Positions 11,637-17,025 of a DNA stretch of 64,000 nucleotides are shown here, in pieces; position 1 is the stretch's first letter, and the number at the start of each line of letters is the position of its first letter. A program made the position numbers and the translations under genes. The notes under the pieces are model-generated. The model searched no databases. It was given only the letters and a program-made list of their open reading frames with translations, and had not been told where the DNA came from. Source of the stretch: a virus; the IMG/VR virus record IMGVR_UViG_3300045974_000429, positions 19,745 through 83,744 of that record; one strand, given 5' to 3'.

Positions 11637-11665
11637 AAGATAGGCTTTCTTCTCTTTTGCGTCAA
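11637..11665 (-). promoter_or_regulatory. Sigma70-like promoter TTGACG-N17-TATCTT
   Basis: 17-nt purine-rich spacer similar to three other promoters in this region. Confidence 0.7.
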
Positions 11666-12114
11666 GCTTTCTTTTCGCTCTGCGCCGCTTCCCGCGCGAG
11701 GCGGGAAATTGCGGCGGGTTCCGCTCCGAGCTTGTGGAGCGCGAGGCATGCCTGAAACGCATCCGGGTGCGACAGGCGGAGAGCGAGGACGCGGCGCCTG
11801 GTCTCCGGGGTGAGGGAGGTGTCGCCGGCTAGCCTGACGACATCGCGGTGCTGCGCCGCCGCCCAGTGGCCCCAGAGCAGCTTGGCGCGCCTGCCCCGCA
11901 TGCCCAGCTGGTAGCCGGTCACGTCGCGGACCAGATCGACGCCGGCGGCCTGGAGGTGCTCGCCCCAGGGAGTCGGCACGATGACCTCGCCGGCCGCGAA
12001 CCGCGCGCGGCGGGTGGTCAGCGCCTGACACCGATCGCCGGCTCGGTGCTGGGCGAGCCGCGAGGTGGCAATCTCGGCGGTGCAGCCAGGGCAGATCGTT
12101 ATTGGGTCGGTCAC
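11662..12114 (-). CDS. Hypothetical protein with CxxC motif
   Basis: VTDPITICPGC...; GTGA coupling to the vWA gene stop (3' part of ORF 11662..13542). Confidence 0.6.
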   Translation of the reverse strand: MTDPITICPGCTAEIATSRLAQHRAGDRCQALTTRRARFAAGEVIVPTPWGEHLQAAGVDLVRDVTGYQLGMRGRRAKLLWGHWAAAQHRDVVRLAGDTSLTPETRRRVLALRLSHPDAFQACLALHKLGAEPAAISRLAREAAQSEKKA

Positions 12115-13529
12115 GGCGTCGGCTCCCGGTCCACGAGGACCACCTCGCCGAACCTCTTGACGTCGTTGGTGTAGGTGCTCCCAATGAGCGCCCAGATGAC
12201 CTTGGCGCCCTTGGGCTCCGGGCCGGGGTCGCCGATCATGCCGTCCGTCAGGACGATGATCACGCTGGGCGGCGTCCTGGATTCCATGAGGAGCTTGAGG
12301 GCCGGCTTCATGTCGGTGCCGCCGCCGCCCTTGAGCTTGGAGGCCGCCTCCTTGGCGGACCTGACCTTGAGGAGCCCATCCGTGCCCGCGTCGATGGCGC
12401 AGAAGGTGACGTCGCCGCCGACCGCCCGGAGGATGCCGTCCACCTCGCCGAGGGCCTGCGCGAGCTGCGCGCCGCTCATGCTGCCGGAGGTGTCCACGAC
12501 GACCGCGACGTTGGGCTTGTGGCCGTGGAAGCTCGGCATCAGCGGGCGGCCCGGCCCGTAACCCAGGCCCGCCTGCCGGCGGCTCGGCTTGGAGAAGCCC
12601 ATGTCGGTGGCGCCGGAGGCCCGCATGAGCGTGCGCCGCACGAGGCGCTGGAGCTTGTCCTGCCACCGGACCTTGGGCGGCTTGATCTTCTCCTCCGCCC
12701 ACCGCGCGAGCCCGCCGGGGACGCTGCCGCGCCCCTTCTGCGCAACGTGGGAGGCGACCTCGCGCGCGACCTGCGCCCGGATGCGCTCCGCCTCCGCCTC
12801 GCCGACGCCCAGCGGGTCGCCCTGGGCGGCCTCGCCCGAGCCCTTGCCCGGCTGTCCCTGACCGGCGCCGTCGCCGTCGCCGGGCTGCGGCTTGTCCAAG
12901 CCCAACTTCTTCTCGATGTCGTGCGCGTTGCCGGCGCAGGAGCCGCACTGGCCGTTGCCAGGGCCGCCCTTGCCCGGCTGCCCCTGGCCCTTGTTGCCCT
13001 GCTTCTTCTGGGACTGCTTCTTCCGCAGCTCCTCCAGGTAGACCTGGGCGGGCTGCCCCTCCGGCATCCCGATGCTGCTCGGCAGCCAGAAGATGTTCTC
13101 CACCTGGGCCTGGGCGGCGTACTCCGCCTTCGTGAGCGGGCGACCGGGCAGTTTCCAGCCTCCGGCGACGAGGTCGTCGTTGTTCGCCATGTCGCTGGCG
13201 AGGTTCGCGTTGTGGTGCTGGCTCGGGTCCGCCTTGCAGAGCGCCTCGAACCGCTTGACGTCCTGCCGGATGAAGTGGAGCAGCTCGTGGACGAGCGCGC
13301 CGGCCAGCTCGTCCGTCGGCAGGCCCGAGACGAATGCGGCCGAGTAGTAGCAGACGTTTTGGTCGGTCATCCCGAGCGTCGAGAACCCGCCCGGCCGGAC
13401 CGGCTCGCACTCGGCGGCCGGCACCTCCAGGAACACGGTCCGCGAGAGCGCCGCCCAGAAATAGGGAGCCTTCGTGCGGACCGCTCGCCGAGCGATCTGG
13501 ATGCACTGCATCGCGGTCAACTTGGCCAC
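12111..13529 (-). CDS. DUF2201-like metallopeptidase + vWA domain protein
   Basis: HELLH (HExxH), N.ASD..NN, Gly/Gln-rich linker, MIDAS DTSGSMS, GGGGTD, LTDG. Confidence 0.9.
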   Translation of the reverse strand: MAKLTAMQCIQIARRAVRTKAPYFWAALSRTVFLEVPAAECEPVRPGGFSTLGMTDQNVCYYSAAFVSGLPTDELAGALVHELLHFIRQDVKRFEALCKADPSQHHNANLASDMANNDDLVAGGWKLPGRPLTKAEYAAQAQVENIFWLPSSIGMPEGQPAQVYLEELRKKQSQKKQGNKGQGQPGKGGPGNGQCGSCAGNAHDIEKKLGLDKPQPGDGDGAGQGQPGKGSGEAAQGDPLGVGEAEAERIRAQVAREVASHVAQKGRGSVPGGLARWAEEKIKPPKVRWQDKLQRLVRRTLMRASGATDMGFSKPSRRQAGLGYGPGRPLMPSFHGHKPNVAVVVDTSGSMSGAQLAQALGEVDGILRAVGGDVTFCAIDAGTDGLLKVRSAKEAASKLKGGGGTDMKPALKLLMESRTPPSVIIVLTDGMIGDPGPEPKGAKVIWALIGSTYTNDVKRFGEVVLVDREPTP

Positions 13530-13531
13530 GG

Positions 13532-13846
13532 CTACCACCCACCGCTGTAGCGGCCGGAGGTGCTCCCGCGCCCGTCGCACTCGTCGCAGTGCGACGGGTG
13601 GCAGCCGGGGTAGCCGCAGGGGCGCCAGTTGCGCGGCGCGGAGCGCGGCCGCTGGGGGAACTGCTCCGCCGCCATGATCTCCGCCCCAGATTGCGGCGCG
13701 GCCGCCAGCGGCGCGGGGCAGGCCAAGTGCGCCGCCTGCGCGCCCGGCGCCCAGAGGATCTGCGTTCCGGCCGGGAACCGCGCCCCGCACTTCGCGCAGG
13801 TTCCCGGAAACTTCGCCGCCATCTGCCTCGTGCCCGTCGTCGCCAT
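13532..13846 (-). CDS. Small Cys-rich (Zn-binding) hypothetical protein
   Basis: AKFPGTCAKCG...HLAC; CGYPGC..HCDEC; GAGGAG RBS. Confidence 0.7.
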   Translation of the reverse strand: MATTGTRQMAAKFPGTCAKCGARFPAGTQILWAPGAQAAHLACPAPLAAAPQSGAEIMAAEQFPQRPRSAPRNWRPCGYPGCHPSHCDECDGRGSTSGRYSGGW

Positions 13847-13898
13847 CTTCGTCTCCTCGTGAGAGGGGGCGGCCGCGGAGGCCGCCCTCTTGAGTCTC

Positions 13899-13927
13899 TT
13901 TGTACGCTTCCTTTTCTTTCTTGTCTA
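13899..13927 (-). promoter_or_regulatory. Sigma70-like promoter TAGACA-N17-TACAAA
   Basis: Spacer AGAAAGAAAAGGAAGCG nearly identical to that at 16925-16953. Confidence 0.6.
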
Positions 13928-13931
13928 GCTT

Positions 13932-16307
13932 TTATTTCACGGCGACCAGGATCGGGTTGAGTTTGGCCAGTGTCTTCATCGACGCGGCGCCGAGCAGCCG
14001 GGCGCCGGCGAGCGCCCTGGCGGGCGCCTCGACCAGATCCGCGGCGTCATCCATCAGCGTCTCCAGGAGCGCCCACATCTTCGCGGCGCGCACCTTCTGG
14101 GAGGCGCCGGCGTCGCCGGTCACGAGCGCGGTGCAGGAGGAGAGGACCGCGTCCGAGATATCGAGGCGGTGAGGGTTGTGCTTCCACTTCGCCTTCCCGT
14201 CCAGGATCTCCGCCGGGTCCGGCAGGTCCATGTTCGTGGCGTAGGTCAGGAACTCGCCGGCGGGGCCGTCGCCGACGAAGGCTGCGACGAGCGTGTCCCG
14301 GTCGCCGGCCGAGAGGCCGTGGATCTTGGAGGCGGCGAAGGCCCGCGTGGCAGCCTCCCAGCTCCGGGGGGAGGGCCACGCCTGGGAGGCGGCCGGGCTG
14401 TTCGCCTCGGGCACCTTGAGGAGCAGGTCCGACTTGCGCTTGACGAACCCGGCGACGAGGCCCCGAGCGGTCGCCCACGGCGTGCCCCAGGCGGCGAGCA
14501 CCCGCGCCTCCTCGGCCGCCGGGTCGATGGGCGCGGCGGCGGCGCTCTCGCCACCGCCCAGGAGCCAGTTCGTCCACTCCTCGGCGGTCGGGGCCTCCCA
14601 GTTGATGTGGCCGAGTCGGTTGGCGACCGGCATCGCGAGGTCCCACCCGCCGGCCGCTTGGTCGGTCGGGTTCGCCGTGGCGAGCACCCGGACGCCCGAG
14701 GCGAGCGGCTGTCCGCCGATCATGCGCTCCTGGATGAGCCCGAGGAGCGGCGGCTGGAGCGCGGGCGGGGCGCAGTTGTGCACCAAGGTGCCGCCTGCCC
14801 CTGCGAAGAAATTGTGGTCGCGTTCGACGGTCAGGTCGTAGACGATGCAGGAAACGGCGTTGCGCTGGATTCGGTGCACGCGCACGAACGCAGGAAGTTG
14901 CGGATCAGCGCCTCCAGTGCGTCCGGAGTCCGGAGAAGCTGCGCACGAACCCGCAAGGTCCGCCAGCCCGCCGCGCGATAGTCTTGTGCTTCCAGCAGAG
15001 GCTCCGAGGGCGTTAAGCGGTCTAGCAGAATCGCCGCGCGCAGCGGCAGATCCGCAAAGTCCGGCACCCGCCAGTTTCTGCGCCCCCCCGGCGGGATCGG
15101 TACCCGCAAGCTTCCATCCCCCGTGTACGGCAGCGCGATCTTGCGCGCAGTGAGAAACGTGATCATCTCCCGTTCTGTTGGCGTCGGTTTCGCCATGCGG
15201 AACACGCACGGGATCCGCCCGGAGATCGTGTGCGCGCGGTTCTTCGCTGCTATCGAGTCCATCTGCCCGTGCTTCCAGGCCGCCAGGAACTTGGTTGACG
15301 CCATCTCGCGCCCCGCAGCACTGCGCCAGAACGCTCCCGCAGCCCGCCCGCCCATCTGCGATAGATTTGGATGGATCTTCCGAGCCGCTGCAGCTGCACG
15401 CGATGCCGCTGCGGCCCGCTCCGCCGCGGTCGTCCTCGCGAGGAACGTTGCCGTGCTCTTGCGCTGAATTATTGCATTCACTTCGAGCGAAAGCGTTGCA
15501 CGCATCTCGGCCAGCCTCGTTCCGTGCGCACGCTTCTCCGCAGCAAACGCTGGATCCGCCATCCGTGCGCGCTGCGTTACCGCCGCAGCCGCCCCGCGCC
15601 TTGCTGACATCTGCGGGTCCGCCAGCAGTGCTGCAGGGAACCGCGTGCGAAACTCCGCTACCGTCATCCCATGCCGCTTCTGAAGATGCGTCGCTGTGAG
15701 GACCCACATCGGCAGCAAGCAGATCGCGCAGCGCAACGAGGGTGCTTCCAGCGCGGAGCTGCTCTGCTGGGATCCAGCGTCCTTCGCTGTAGATGGGGTG
15801 GTCAGGGGTGCAGCGGATCGTCGTGCCATCGGTCAGCTCCAGGGTGAGCAGCGCCGTGACGCGGCGCTGCATGACTCCAGAAACCAGATTAGCGCGGCGC
15901 ATCCCACGTTGCAAGGCGCAGGACCAGACGGCGTCACCGACCCGCAGCTGCTCGATTGGCCGCTGGCCTTGTGGCGTGTGGACCGGCGTGCCTGCGGGGA
16001 AACAGGAAATCTCGTCGATGATGACCAGCCCCCTCTCCGCCATCCCGAGCGTCCACTCGGGCGCGGGGTAGGAGAGGAGGGTGCGCCCGTTGATCGTGGT
16101 CGGGACCGGGACGACGCCGAAGGCGCCCTCGCCGCGCTCGCCGGGGGAGAGGATCTCGACCTTGAGGCCGCCAGCCTTTCCGGCCGCCTCGCAGCTCTGT
16201 GTTTTGGCGACACCCGGAGGGCCGCGGAACAGGAGGGGCAGGCCCCAGCGGTTCCGGCTGATGGGGGTGAAGAGGGCTGCGTGGAGGATCTTGGCCTTGT
16301 TCGTCAT
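13932..16307 (-). CDS. MoxR-family AAA+ ATPase interrupted by an intein
   Basis: Walker A GPPGVAKT, Walker B VIIDE, sensor ATANP, NR, WPSPRSWE; 381 aa after removing the 410-aa intein. Confidence 0.9.
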   Translation of the reverse strand: MTNKAKILHAALFTPISRNRWGLPLLFRGPPGVAKTQSCEAAGKAGGLKVEILSPGERGEGAFGVVPVPTTINGRTLLSYPAPEWTLGMAERGLVIIDEISCFPAGTPVHTPQGQRPIEQLRVGDAVWSCALQRGMRRANLVSGVMQRRVTALLTLELTDGTTIRCTPDHPIYSEGRWIPAEQLRAGSTLVALRDLLAADVGPHSDASSEAAWDDGSGVSHAVPCSTAGGPADVSKARGGCGGNAARTDGGSSVCCGEACARNEAGRDACNAFARSECNNSAQEHGNVPREDDRGGAGRSGIACSCSGSEDPSKSIADGRAGCGSVLAQCCGARDGVNQVPGGLEARADGLDSSEEPRAHDLRADPVRVPHGETDANRTGDDHVSHCAQDRAAVHGGWKLAGTDPAGGAQKLAGAGLCGSAAARGDSARPLNALGASAGSTRLSRGGLADLAGSCAASPDSGRTGGADPQLPAFVRVHRIQRNAVSCIVYDLTVERDHNFFAGAGGTLVHNCAPPALQPPLLGLIQERMIGGQPLASGVRVLATANPTDQAAGGWDLAMPVANRLGHINWEAPTAEEWTNWLLGGGESAAAAPIDPAAEEARVLAAWGTPWATARGLVAGFVKRKSDLLLKVPEANSPAASQAWPSPRSWEAATRAFAASKIHGLSAGDRDTLVAAFVGDGPAGEFLTYATNMDLPDPAEILDGKAKWKHNPHRLDISDAVLSSCTALVTGDAGASQKVRAAKMWALLETLMDDAADLVEAPARALAGARLLGAASMKTLAKLNPILVAVK
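14775..16004 (-). mobile_element. Intein (410 aa) inserted just after Walker B
   Basis: Block A CFPAGTPV, block B CTPDHPI, block F VYDLTVERDHNFFA, terminal VHN followed by extein Cys. Confidence 0.95.
14831..15829 (-). CDS. Nested alternate-frame endonuclease-like gene (Ros/MucR-type Zn finger + Vsr/DUF559-like domain) inside the intein; probable start TTG 15736
   Basis: CAIC..THLQKRHGMTVAEFRTRFP; PTPTE..YTGDG..PDF..DYRAAGWRTLRV; +1 frame relative to the intein. Confidence 0.75.
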   Translation of the reverse strand: MARRSAAPLTTPSTAKDAGSQQSSSALEAPSLRCAICLLPMWVLTATHLQKRHGMTVAEFRTRFPAALLADPQMSARRGAAAAVTQRARMADPAFAAEKRAHGTRLAEMRATLSLEVNAIIQRKSTATFLARTTAAERAAAASRAAAAARKIHPNLSQMGGRAAGAFWRSAAGREMASTKFLAAWKHGQMDSIAAKNRAHTISGRIPCVFRMAKPTPTEREMITFLTARKIALPYTGDGSLRVPIPPGGRRNWRVPDFADLPLRAAILLDRLTPSEPLLEAQDYRAAGWRTLRVRAQLLRTPDALEALIRNFLRSCACTESSATPFPASSTT

Positions 16308-16340
16308 GGGTTTCTCCGTCGAGTGCGGCGAGGTGAAGGT

Positions 16341-16369
16341 AAAGTAAGCTTTCTTCTCTTTCTTGTCAA
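16341..16369 (-). promoter_or_regulatory. Sigma70-like promoter TTGACA-N17-TACTTT
   Basis: Consensus -35, shared purine-rich spacer, upstream of the AAA gene. Confidence 0.75.
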
Positions 16370-16539
16370 GCGTCGATCTGCTCGACCTGGAAGCGCCGAG
16401 CGGCGCGAACGAAGTCGCGCGCCAGGGCGCGGTGCTCCTCGGCCAGCTCCGCCGTCTCGGCGTGGCGAGCGGCGTCCACCTCGCAGCGGGCTTGGAGGCG
16501 GAGCCAGTTGAGCATCTGCTGCGGGGTCGAGAGTTTCAT
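16366..16539 (-). CDS. Small hypothetical protein (57 aa, MKLSTPQQMLNW...)
   Basis: GAGGAG RBS + ATG; too short for the ORF track. Confidence 0.6.
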   Translation of the reverse strand: MKLSTPQQMLNWLRLQARCEVDAARHAETAELAEEHRALARDFVRAARRFQVEQIDA

Positions 16540-16636: not shown

Positions 16637-16879
16637 CTAGTCGAAGTGGAGGGCATATACGCGGCCGTCGATTTCCGCCCAGCGGTACGAGCCCCCGTCA
16701 TCGATCTCCACCCCGCGCTCCGCGGCGGCGGCAAGGAGCTTGGTGATCATCATCGCTCCGGCCTTGGTCTCAGCGTCGTAGTACTTGCCGCGGCAGCCGC
16801 AGGCGCATCCCGGCTTCCCGCTGTAGGCGCGGACCGGACTCCTCGGCGCCGCGTTCGTCTGTTCCGTCGTCGTCGGCAT
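16637..16879 (-). CDS. Small hypothetical protein
   Basis: 80 aa, YSGKPGCACGCRGKY; GAGGAG RBS downstream of a promoter. Confidence 0.75.
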   Translation of the reverse strand: MPTTTEQTNAAPRSPVRAYSGKPGCACGCRGKYYDAETKAGAMMITKLLAAAAERGVEIDDGGSYRWAEIDGRVYALHFD

Positions 16880-16924
16880 CTTCGTCTCCTCTGCGGGGGT
16901 GCCCCCCGCGCGGTTGATGAAAGA

Positions 16925-16953
16925 ACCTTACTCTTCCTTTTCTTTCTTGTCTA
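16925..16953 (-). promoter_or_regulatory. Sigma70-like promoter TAGACA-N17-TAAGGT
   Basis: Shared purine-rich spacer; the 14-mer CTCTTCCTTTTCTT recurs at 16959-16972. Confidence 0.7.
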
Positions 16954-17025
16954 GTCCTCTCTTCCTTTTCTTCTATTGCCTCGACGCCGCTGGTCTTTTT
17001 TTCCTTCCCGCGCTAGCCTCGCCGG

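Follow-up and report, generated by a model that had tools for sequence, protein, structure and literature searches.

A phage MoxR-like ATPase gene carrying an intein that is predicted to hold a complete homing-endonuclease gene in its +1 frame

The DNA studied here was a stretch of 64,000 nucleotides (nt), called the window below, taken from the 83.7-kb IMG/VR virus record IMGVR_UViG_3300045974_000429, with a G+C content (GC) of about 69%. The locus of interest is on the minus strand, as are all features described below unless another strand is given. It consists of a gene for a phage MoxR-like AAA+ ATPase precursor of 791 amino acids (aa), designated P0001 (13932–16307), which contains a class-1 intein of 410 aa (14775–16004). 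Inside the intein, a second open reading frame (ORF) of 332 aa, designated P0002 (14831–15829), was found on this strand in the +1 frame, and it was regarded as a putative homing endonuclease gene from its homologues and its structure model. According to the ORF list, the host gene was a single open frame of 791 codons, which ran straight through the nested gene. A preliminary description of this DNA, made from the sequence alone, had proposed an intein with its endonuclease encoded out of frame.

The host gene was identified as an ATPase gene from its ORF and a PHROG scan, in which phrog_1297 ("ATPase") matched precursor aa 511–724 with an E value of 4.4e-23. The precursor possessed a Walker A motif (GPPGVAKT) and a Walker B motif (VIIDE). 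Six intein-less homologues (P0041–P0046) of 436–449 aa were obtained with identities of 38–47%, and three of the six carried the domain PF07728 AAA_5. In the alignment, all six were gapped exactly across precursor aa 102–511, with the flanks DE(V/I/A/L)x and (S/T)(T/A)PPAL. This alignment placed the N-extein at aa 1–101 (16005–16307), ending in ...VIIDEIS, and, together with the ORF, the C-extein at 13932–14774, from CAPPALQ... through the stop codon, and the insertion junctions were DEIS|C...HN|CAPP. The intein was located past Walker B and ahead of sensor 1, and the region between these two motifs is a typical conserved-site location for an intein.

The boundaries of the intein, from Cys1 to His-Asn followed by Cys+1, were obtained from the Pfam and TIGRFAM matches and from the gap in the homologues. 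Pfam Intein_splicing matched precursor aa 118–511 with an E value of 1.5e-11, and Hint-type matches were found at the N-terminus as well, where Hint_2 and PT-HINT began at precursor aa 102. TIGR01443 (intein C-terminus) gave an E value of 7e-8 and 32.5 bits against a cut-off of 15.6 bits, while TIGR01445 (intein N-terminus) was under its own cut-off with an E value of 7e-4. The scores of Intein_splicing and TIGR01443 confirmed the element as an intein. Block A was CFPAGT with the Cys1 nucleophile, block B was TPDH at intein aa 66–69 (15798–15809), whose columns were invariant in the intein alignment, block F was VYDLTVERDHNFF, and block G was TLVHN|C. The 410-aa intein with intact splicing blocks that had been claimed at the outset was thus recovered with exact coordinates and all four blocks. 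The N-terminal splicing domain covered intein aa 1 to about 93 (15726–16004), as judged by the Hint-type Pfam matches and an identity of 39% over the N-terminal half to a mini-intein, L002. The C-terminal splicing domain, FVRVHRIQ...VYDLTVERDHNFF...TLVHN (14775–14888), contained blocks F and G and was supported by TIGR01443 and by the same mini-intein, with which 16 of 24 residues (67%) were identical at the C-terminus. From its intact blocks and open frame, the intein is predicted to splice.

The mini-intein L002, of 140 aa and without a central insert, was the closest intein in the viral contigs, and the other matches of the precursor there were unrelated Hint domains. As a separate observation, the Hint domains of L003–L007 were C-terminal domains of a tail-like protein. 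In L006 (2380–3507), as in L003, L004 and L007, a Hint domain (CFVADTQ...TPDHPIY...GVLVHN) came after a run of nine Gly and was itself followed by Lys and a short tail. This structural-looking phage protein carried a C-terminal autoprocessing Hint domain, not an intein.

Between the splicing domains of the ATPase intein, the intein frame contained a central segment of about 279 open codons (14889–15725), rich in G, A, S, D and R, without a domain or a confident fold. Precursor aa ~195–473 had no match in the Pfam, NCBIfam and PHROG scans, and in the AlphaFold2 model of the intein frame the centre had a predicted local distance difference test score (pLDDT) of about 30–40. The mean of this model was 43.2, and its N-terminal splicing domain reached 62–80. 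The result agreed with the earlier claim that the central ~280 aa have no recognisable domain in the intein frame. Across the five plus-strand ORFs of the region, no Pfam match at E ≤ 0.01 was obtained, and DUF3659 was sub-threshold with an E value of 0.011. The centre of the intein frame may be a disordered linker, whose sequence would be dictated by the overlapping gene.

The nested ORF is a real coding sequence. Its TGA stop (14831–14833) fell within the block F codons CTG-ACC. A HMMER search of 1.84 billion representative proteins gave 37 homologues of P0002 at E ≤ 0.001, 22 of them at E ≤ 1e-10; the latter included P0003, a gene call of the window itself, which left 21 non-self homologues. 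These were 214–349 aa in length with identities of 32–44%, and each had been called as a separate protein. The family alignment contained 24 rows, namely P0002, the 21 homologues, P0028 and P0030, and it left out P0003 and 13 partial or finger-only matches. Fourteen columns were invariant in the 24 rows: W185, P215, E219, Y235, G237, R251, P256, D257, F258, L268, D270, E280, Y284 and R293. P0002 kept all 14 of the invariant residues and six of the seven near-invariant ones. The AlphaFold2 model of P0002 had a mean pLDDT of 88.4, with 263 of 332 residues at 90 or above, so that the comparison of both frames proposed earlier gave 88.4 for the +1 frame and 43.2 for the intein frame. Scores below 50 were confined to residues 1–4, 9–27 and 325–332, and these low-scoring ends were the parts overlapping the splicing domains. 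The motifs on which the idea of a coherent +1-frame protein had been based (CAIC..H..H, PT..E, YTGDG, PDF and DY..AGW..LRV) were all present and corresponded to family-conserved columns.

The 21 homologues were metagenomic. The ten proteins in the cluster look-up were all singletons; they came from assemblies of ENA, Logan or JGI, and none of their contigs exceeded 8.2 kb. No match of P0002 was obtained by tblastn against 50,697 GenBank phage records, by phmmer against the PDB sequences or in NCBIfam, and the best PHROGs E value was 0.065. A word-based protein search with P0002 retrieved solely P0003. As regards the existing annotation, P0003 (14831–15562) began at Met90 and comprised 243 aa of the nested gene, which was all that the source gene caller had kept. 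Furthermore, the 791-aa precursor was missing among the matches of its own protein search. Automatic annotation seems to break this dual-coded locus.

P0002 was composed of three regions. The first was a Ros/MucR-like C2H2 zinc finger at aa 32–76 (15602–15736), with the pattern C34-x2-C37...H48-x4-H53, which was assigned from PF05443 and the family matches. PF05443 (ROS_MUCR) matched P0002 with an E value of 0.0017 and 18.8 bits against a cut-off of 25.4 bits, and it matched ten of the 24 family members, the best at 4.3e-7. The family profile also matched Ros itself (2jsp_A) with an E value of 0.0062. The second region, at aa 72–203 (15221–15616), was all-helical, with seven helices in the predicted secondary structure and a pLDDT above 90. 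It had no specific match and is presumed to bind DNA. The third was a Vsr/DUF559-fold nuclease domain at aa 208–322 (14864–15208), which was identified by VIA-align, Foldseek and the invariant columns; its invariant residues included E219, D257 (in PDF), D270 (in LLD), E280, Y284 and R293. By VIA-align, it matched the DUF559 protein NGO0050 (3hrl) with a Z score of 10.2 and a root-mean-square deviation (rmsd) of 2.4 over 90/94 residues, the catalytic domain of I-Bth0305I (3r3p_A) with a Z score of 10.2 and an rmsd of 2.3 over 90/97 residues, and Vsr (1cw0) with a Z score of 8.2. The best PDB match in Foldseek was 3r3p_B with an E value of 2.9e-3, and none was found at 0.001. In the Pfam scan of the 24 members, DUF559 was found in three (best 0.0036) and Vsr in two (best 0.031), with neither in P0002 itself. 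Taken with the structure model and the fold matches, these tallies bore out the Ros/MucR finger and the Vsr/DUF559-fold nuclease named in the preliminary description.

Similar proteins were present in other phages. In BFVD, 18 phage proteins matched at E ≤ 0.001, with names including Endonuclease, ROS/MUCR, DUF559, NUMOD3, TnsA-N and "Homing endonuclease". In the ESM Atlas, viral clusters of 280–341 aa paired DUF559 or Vsr with ROS_MUCR, which were taken as leads only. P0002 seems to belong to a wide range of phage genes that join a zinc finger to a nuclease and are normally free-standing. The function as a homing endonuclease is predicted from the location inside an intein and from the fold. 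It had been suspected that the segment ILLDRLT was a degenerate catalytic segment and that the nuclease might be inactive. This was not supported, for L268 and D270 were invariant in 24/24 members, as were E219, D257 and E280. The invariance of the LLD segment in the family indicates the family's own version of the active site, not decay. No His in the nuclease domain was invariant or near-invariant among the 24 aligned members.

Two candidate starts of the nested gene were recognised from the sequence. The first (15827–15840) was ATG (15827–15829) preceded by GGAG (15837–15840) with a 7-nt spacer. This ATG was the first start past the +1-frame TGA and was made by the intein Asp-Gly codons GAT-GGC, and two homologues, P0009 and P0010, had a Met start at the aligned position. 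The second (15734–15749) was TTG (15734–15736) preceded by GGAAG (15745–15749) with an 8-nt spacer. It stood two codons ahead of Cys34, and the model of P0002 was ordered from about residue 31. The TTG at 15736 with its GGAAG, which had earlier been given as the translation start, is thus one of two candidates, the ATG at 15829 with GGAG being the other. No promoter-like and no terminator-like site was detected in a scan of 14700–16500. RNA folding around the candidate starts was not notable (z −0.72).

The two frames were compared for signs of selection. When the +1-frame codons were shuffled, 0.3% of 5000 trials left the intein frame open, as did 2.0% of 5000 synonymous resamplings. The nested gene had 34 T-ending codons out of 281 and 41 codons starting with AA, AG or GA; 4.96 stops were expected in the intein frame and none was observed (P ~0.005). 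Over the same aligned DNA, the window and the metagenome contig L010 were identical at 39/101 residues in the +1 frame and at 18/100 in the intein frame, and their nucleotide identity by +1 codon position was 0.45/0.55/0.40, the third position being the freest; the basis of this comparison is one DNA relative at about 39% protein identity. In the exteins, the GC of the third codon position in the host frame was 0.85–0.97, while in the central segment host position 1, corresponding to the +1 third position, was the GC-richest, with about 0.7–0.85. The preliminary description had cautioned that this frame pairing stays open easily in GC-rich DNA. That holds for the phage's own genes, which had a third-position GC of about 0.95, few T-ending codons and a −1 frame that was often open, but not for the nested ORF with its 34 T-ending codons. 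At the level of the sequences compared, conservation was shown to follow the nuclease frame, and the intein frame is kept free of stops. The family alignment likewise supports purifying selection in the +1 frame and not in the intein frame. The ease with which off-frames stay open in the phage's own genes was illustrated by spurious ORFs elsewhere in the window, over a real VWA gene, at 11662–13542 (minus strand, 626 codons) and 12102–13550 (plus strand, 482 codons).

The out-of-frame layout was also looked for in relatives, by searching viral, genome and metagenome contigs with sub-alignments of the family alignment. Pattern matches numbered 35 and 11 in the viral contigs and 17 and 35 in the genome contigs, with no relative in either set. 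The metagenome contigs gave 32 pattern matches, including two relatives, L009 and L010. L010 was a contig of 1297 bp from a different metagenome. It encoded the last 101 codons of the homologue P0014 in frame 1, and its frame 3, open from the contig start, led into ...VAVYDLTVEGTHCYYAGGVLVHN|CSTPTQQ... and on to the C-extein of a homologous ATPase. The C-terminal junction of its intein was ...VYDLTVEGTHCYYAGGVLVHN|CSTP.... Accordingly, L010 was the same as the window in the extein, in the insertion site and in the −1 relation of the intein frame to the nuclease frame. L009 (1–1009, 44% GC) contained the nuclease homologue P0011 at 31–930, with an ATG four codons past a stop in its own frame. 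An upstream −1-frame ORF (AGGVVLSMLHET*) ended at 39–41, 8 nt past this ATG, and the other frames were full of stops. Past the nuclease stop, TTGACA, a 17-nt spacer and TAACAT were found (945–973). L009 may represent the element in a fractured, split-intein form, the outcome in an AT-rich setting, with a contig too short to tell.

Traces of the splicing blocks were found in the tails of other homologues. At least 25 residues preceded the CxxC in seven of them, and "TT" was present at −24/−23 in four and at −23/−22 in one; "TT" is the +1-frame reading of the block B Asp-His (GAC-CAC). The sixth long N-tail had "SI", which fits Glu-His, and the seventh (P0007) was unclear. All seven long N-tails had a Gly fitting Trp downstream of block B. 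At the other end, five of 23 homologue C-tails ended in strings fitting the block F pattern (V/I)(Y/F)D(L/I). These tails are conserved though modelled as disordered, which is best explained by the other frame. The preliminary description had allowed for two compensating indel errors that displaced the nuclease from the intein frame; what was found instead was the same offset in L010 and the same overlap in the homologue tails. Contigs of two pond samples were also compared with the window. A contig of the first sample, X1, which is probably the source sample, was identical over the whole stretch, and contigs of the second sample, X2, were identical over 15118–15620 and 15812–16033. In X2, a joint at 85% likeness also linked 16172 to 14470 across 24 intervening letters, which was not interpretable.

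We consider it likely that this is a non-canonical mobile intein in a phage MoxR-like ATPase, holding, at the usual endonuclease insertion point and in place of an in-frame domain, a complete homing-endonuclease gene on the same strand in the +1 frame. The mRNA of the host gene would be translated twice. Ribosomes in frame 0 would yield the ATPase precursor, the splicing halves of which would dock across the disordered linker of about 280 residues, excise the intein and restore the ATPase. Ribosomes initiating internally at ATG 15829 or TTG 15736 would yield the free endonuclease. During co-infection, this enzyme might cut or nick intein-less ATPase alleles near the site coding for DE(I/V)(S/T)|(S/T)(A/T)PPAL, and repair after the cleavage would copy the intein into the cut allele. 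As to the origin, a free-standing phage endonuclease gene may have entered a mini-intein, and the copies in which the intein frame was open would have survived. The mini-intein L002 and the free-standing look-alikes in phages fit such an invasion.

Several points weigh against this explanation. Separate translation, splicing and cleavage are all predicted, from the frames, the blocks and the fold. The catalytic chemistry is uncertain, as the His of Vsr and the EDxHD enzymes is absent from the whole family, and the near-invariant Asn255, present in at least 90% of the members, is Val in P0002. The promoter and RNA-structure scans gave no sign of how an internal start would be used or regulated. 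The low pLDDT of the intein-frame model was in part technical, for its alignment had seven sequences and left the centre unaligned. The shuffle tests treat neighbouring codons as independent. In addition, the DNA came from two relatives, and L010 ends inside the nuclease gene, so that the C-terminal junction alone is visible. The other homologues were judged by decoding the intein-frame residues that their protein tails permit, which is compatibility and not proof. Finally, the X2 contigs do not cover the two frame junctions; their gaps include 14721–15053 and most of 15609–15830.

A broader proposal, which we put forward tentatively, as a possibility more doubtful than probable, is that the arrangement is a stable, co-evolved dual-coding unit and no transient stage of an invasion. 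The whole endonuclease family, with its Ros/MucR finger, helical region and His-less Vsr-fold nuclease, would reside mostly within phage inteins of one clade, in their +1 frame. The splicing motifs would themselves supply its translation signals, the ATG arising from the conserved Asp-Gly ahead of block B and the TGA from the block F Leu-Thr. The splicing blocks would then restrict changes in the nuclease gene, and vice versa. The unit would collapse to a fractured split-intein gene in hosts rich in AT, as L009 may show.

Three other explanations were weighed against a mobile intein with a separately translated +1-frame endonuclease. The nested gene might be a relic, in which the intein is fixed, the endonuclease is inactive or unexpressed and the intein frame alone is maintained. 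The homing-cycle model predicts decay of this kind after fixation (a prediction also discussed in bioRxiv 10.64898/2026.09.14.751524), and the missing Vsr/EDxHD His and the change of Asn255 to Val would suit it, as would the X1 and X2 contigs, in which no intein-less allele of this phage was found. We regard it as unlikely, because the ORF is full length, retains all invariant residues, six of the seven near-invariant ones and the high pLDDT described above, and is the frame that conservation against L010 tracks, in place of the intein frame. The missing His, moreover, is a trait of the whole family and no lesion of P0002. Programmed +1 frameshifting in place of internal initiation, which would make an extein-IntN-nuclease fusion, is in our judgement very unlikely. 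The +1 frame is open for 31 codons 5' of the zinc finger, into block B, but 30 open codons are expected by chance in GC-rich DNA, and 15730–15830 contained no in-frame stop and no recognisable slippery or hungry-codon site. Seven homologues have long open N-tails, and the scan found no dedicated promoter; against this, the N-tail was modelled as disordered, the RNA structure was not notable, and the stop four codons 5' of the ATG in L009 indicates that at least one member starts independently.

The remaining explanation, that an in-frame endonuclease domain was displaced by two compensating indels, through an assembly error or real mutation, is largely refuted and hardly credible. One-base shifts near 15740 and 14895 would indeed unite the three parts in one frame, and the sample comparison used assembled contigs only, not raw reads. 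Nevertheless, L010, from another metagenome, keeps the C-terminal offset at just 39% protein identity, and the shadows of blocks B and F are out of frame in six of the seven long N-tails and in five C-tails. X1 was identical throughout and X2 wherever it covered the region. The search for longer proteins found no in-frame fusion protein of 612–2000 aa, a negative that the search tool itself rates as weak evidence, and the 21 homologues were all separate proteins of the lengths given above.

Some observations concern the surroundings of the ATPase gene. Its downstream neighbour (12111–13790, minus strand) encoded a DUF2201_N metallopeptidase and DUF2201/VWA protein, with E values of 1.2e-23 and 2.9e-18. 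A DUF2201/VWA protein is the usual partner of a MoxR ATPase, and the ATPase with the downstream VWA gene formed a MoxR-VWA pair in a phage. A repeat search revealed a promoter-like leader of the repeat family D1 just 5' of the ATPase gene start (16334–16370). Such intergenic leaders were repeated at 13892–13928, 16334–16370 and 16918–16954, and also at 13835–13877 and 16868–16910, with a TTGACA-type box followed by a purine-rich run on the minus strand. The leader repeat resurfaced as a "goes back" joint when the contigs of the pond samples were compared with the window. In both pond samples, the contig depth peaked at the most conserved extein segments (16053–16163, 14499–14609 and 13944–14054), and loose contig ends diverged at 16143–16155. 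The depth peaks and the diverging ends indicated that related phages with diverged ATPase genes share the ponds.

Splicing blocks related to those of this intein were also observed in P0047 (810 aa), a SNF2-type helicase, and P0048 (931 aa), a terminase-like protein. Both had low-complexity, out-of-frame-looking centres of about 200–250 aa, and these inteins may hide overlapping endonuclease genes. The possibility that they share DNA with any member of the P0002 family was rejected: the longest codon-compatible run was 10, compared with 332 in the P0001/P0002 control.

The locus adds a well-supported phage example to the small set of inteins with a separate overlapping endonuclease gene. It supports the view that splicing came first and that the endonuclease invades later, and it is a contiguous counterpart to the fractured genes described in 2009 by Dassa et al. 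It also illustrates that dual-coded inteins and their host genes are mis-annotated in metagenomes. If the intein splices, an unstructured linker of about 280 residues is tolerated between the splicing halves, which bears on intein engineering.

The uniqueness of the layout that the preliminary description implied was not supported, for the layout is rare but related cases have been described. In the cyanobacterial dnaX intein, a LAGLIDADG gene lies out of frame on the same strand (Phillips, DeSimone and Gogarten, bioRxiv 10.64898/2026.09.14.751524), and that preprint credits Gorbalenya 1998 with the first proposal. As in the dnaX intein, the splicing domains are intact on either side of a region that lacks order when read in the intein frame, and the same-strand overlapping ORF has a confident endonuclease fold and upstream motifs like the Shine–Dalgarno sequence. 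Selection also tracks the overlapping frame in both cases, and secondary invasion of a mini-intein has been proposed in both. The dnaX intein differs in its LAGLIDADG enzyme and its bacterial dnaX host, whereas the present element combines a Ros/MucR finger with a Vsr/DUF559 fold in a phage AAA+ ATPase. The dnaX study had 123 close sequences as selection data, compared with one distant DNA relative in our study.

Furthermore, 63 actinophage inteins with non-canonical endonucleases have been reported (Gosselin, Arsenault and Gogarten, bioRxiv 10.1101/2025.01.02.630785), with an antisense VSR-like type and a same-strand, frame-3, endonuclease VII-like type. According to that preprint, split inteins were the only other setting in which VSR-like endonucleases were known. 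Like these elements, the ATPase intein is a phage intein with an endonuclease encoded outside the intein frame. The hosts of the actinophage inteins are DNA polymerase, minor capsid, terminase and thymidylate synthase, compared with a MoxR-like ATPase here. The empty tblastn search of the GenBank phages indicates that P0002 does not detectably belong to the same nuclease family as the actinophage intein endonucleases.

In fractured genes, a free-standing Vsr-like endonuclease gene lies between the halves of a split intein (Dassa et al. 2009, PMC2677866). The ATPase intein resembles them in having a phage-associated Vsr-fold gene on the same strand at the point of endonuclease insertion in an intein. 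The endonuclease gene of Dassa et al. has its own start, and in their model a free-standing gene invades an intein, an origin proposed alike in the preprints of the Gogarten laboratory. In the fractured genes a stop and a start divide the intein, whereas here the intein frame is contiguous through the nested gene.

As regards the enzyme, the EDxHD homing endonucleases possess a Vsr-type general-base His and N-terminal regions of the NUMOD or helix-turn-helix (HTH) type (Taylor et al. 2011, PMC3239194; 3R3P). P0002 shares with I-Bth0305I the catalytic fold and a two-part build of an N-terminal DNA-binding region and a C-terminal nuclease. Unlike the EDxHD family, the P0002 family lacks a conserved His in its nuclease domain and carries a zinc finger in place of NUMOD or HTH, and the Pfam scan gave no NUMOD match among the 24 members. 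Membership of the EDxHD family was rejected, for the His of the composite E-D-x-H-D and the NUMOD are missing, while the acids E219, D257, D270 and E280 are conserved. A further parallel is ShiLan, in which an HNH endonuclease is hidden out of frame in an insertion within the methylase of a phage (Arsenault et al. 2025, PMC11855218). In both, the endonuclease gene occupies another frame of an insertion that is left open in the host frame. The insertion of ShiLan is without splicing domains and stays in the protein, whereas intact intein blocks flank the insert here.

In the open-access literature, as judged by titles and abstracts, no intein in a MoxR gene was found, and no Ros/MucR finger in a homing endonuclease was found in the open-access literature. 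In the compared parts of the papers above, the VSR-like nucleases of full inteins were on the antisense strand, and the others belonged to split inteins. Against this background, the element is a new combination: its nuclease, encoded on the same strand in the +1 frame, joins the Vsr fold to a Ros/MucR finger, its extein is MoxR-like, and there is evidence that the offset persists across a family at 32–44% identity.

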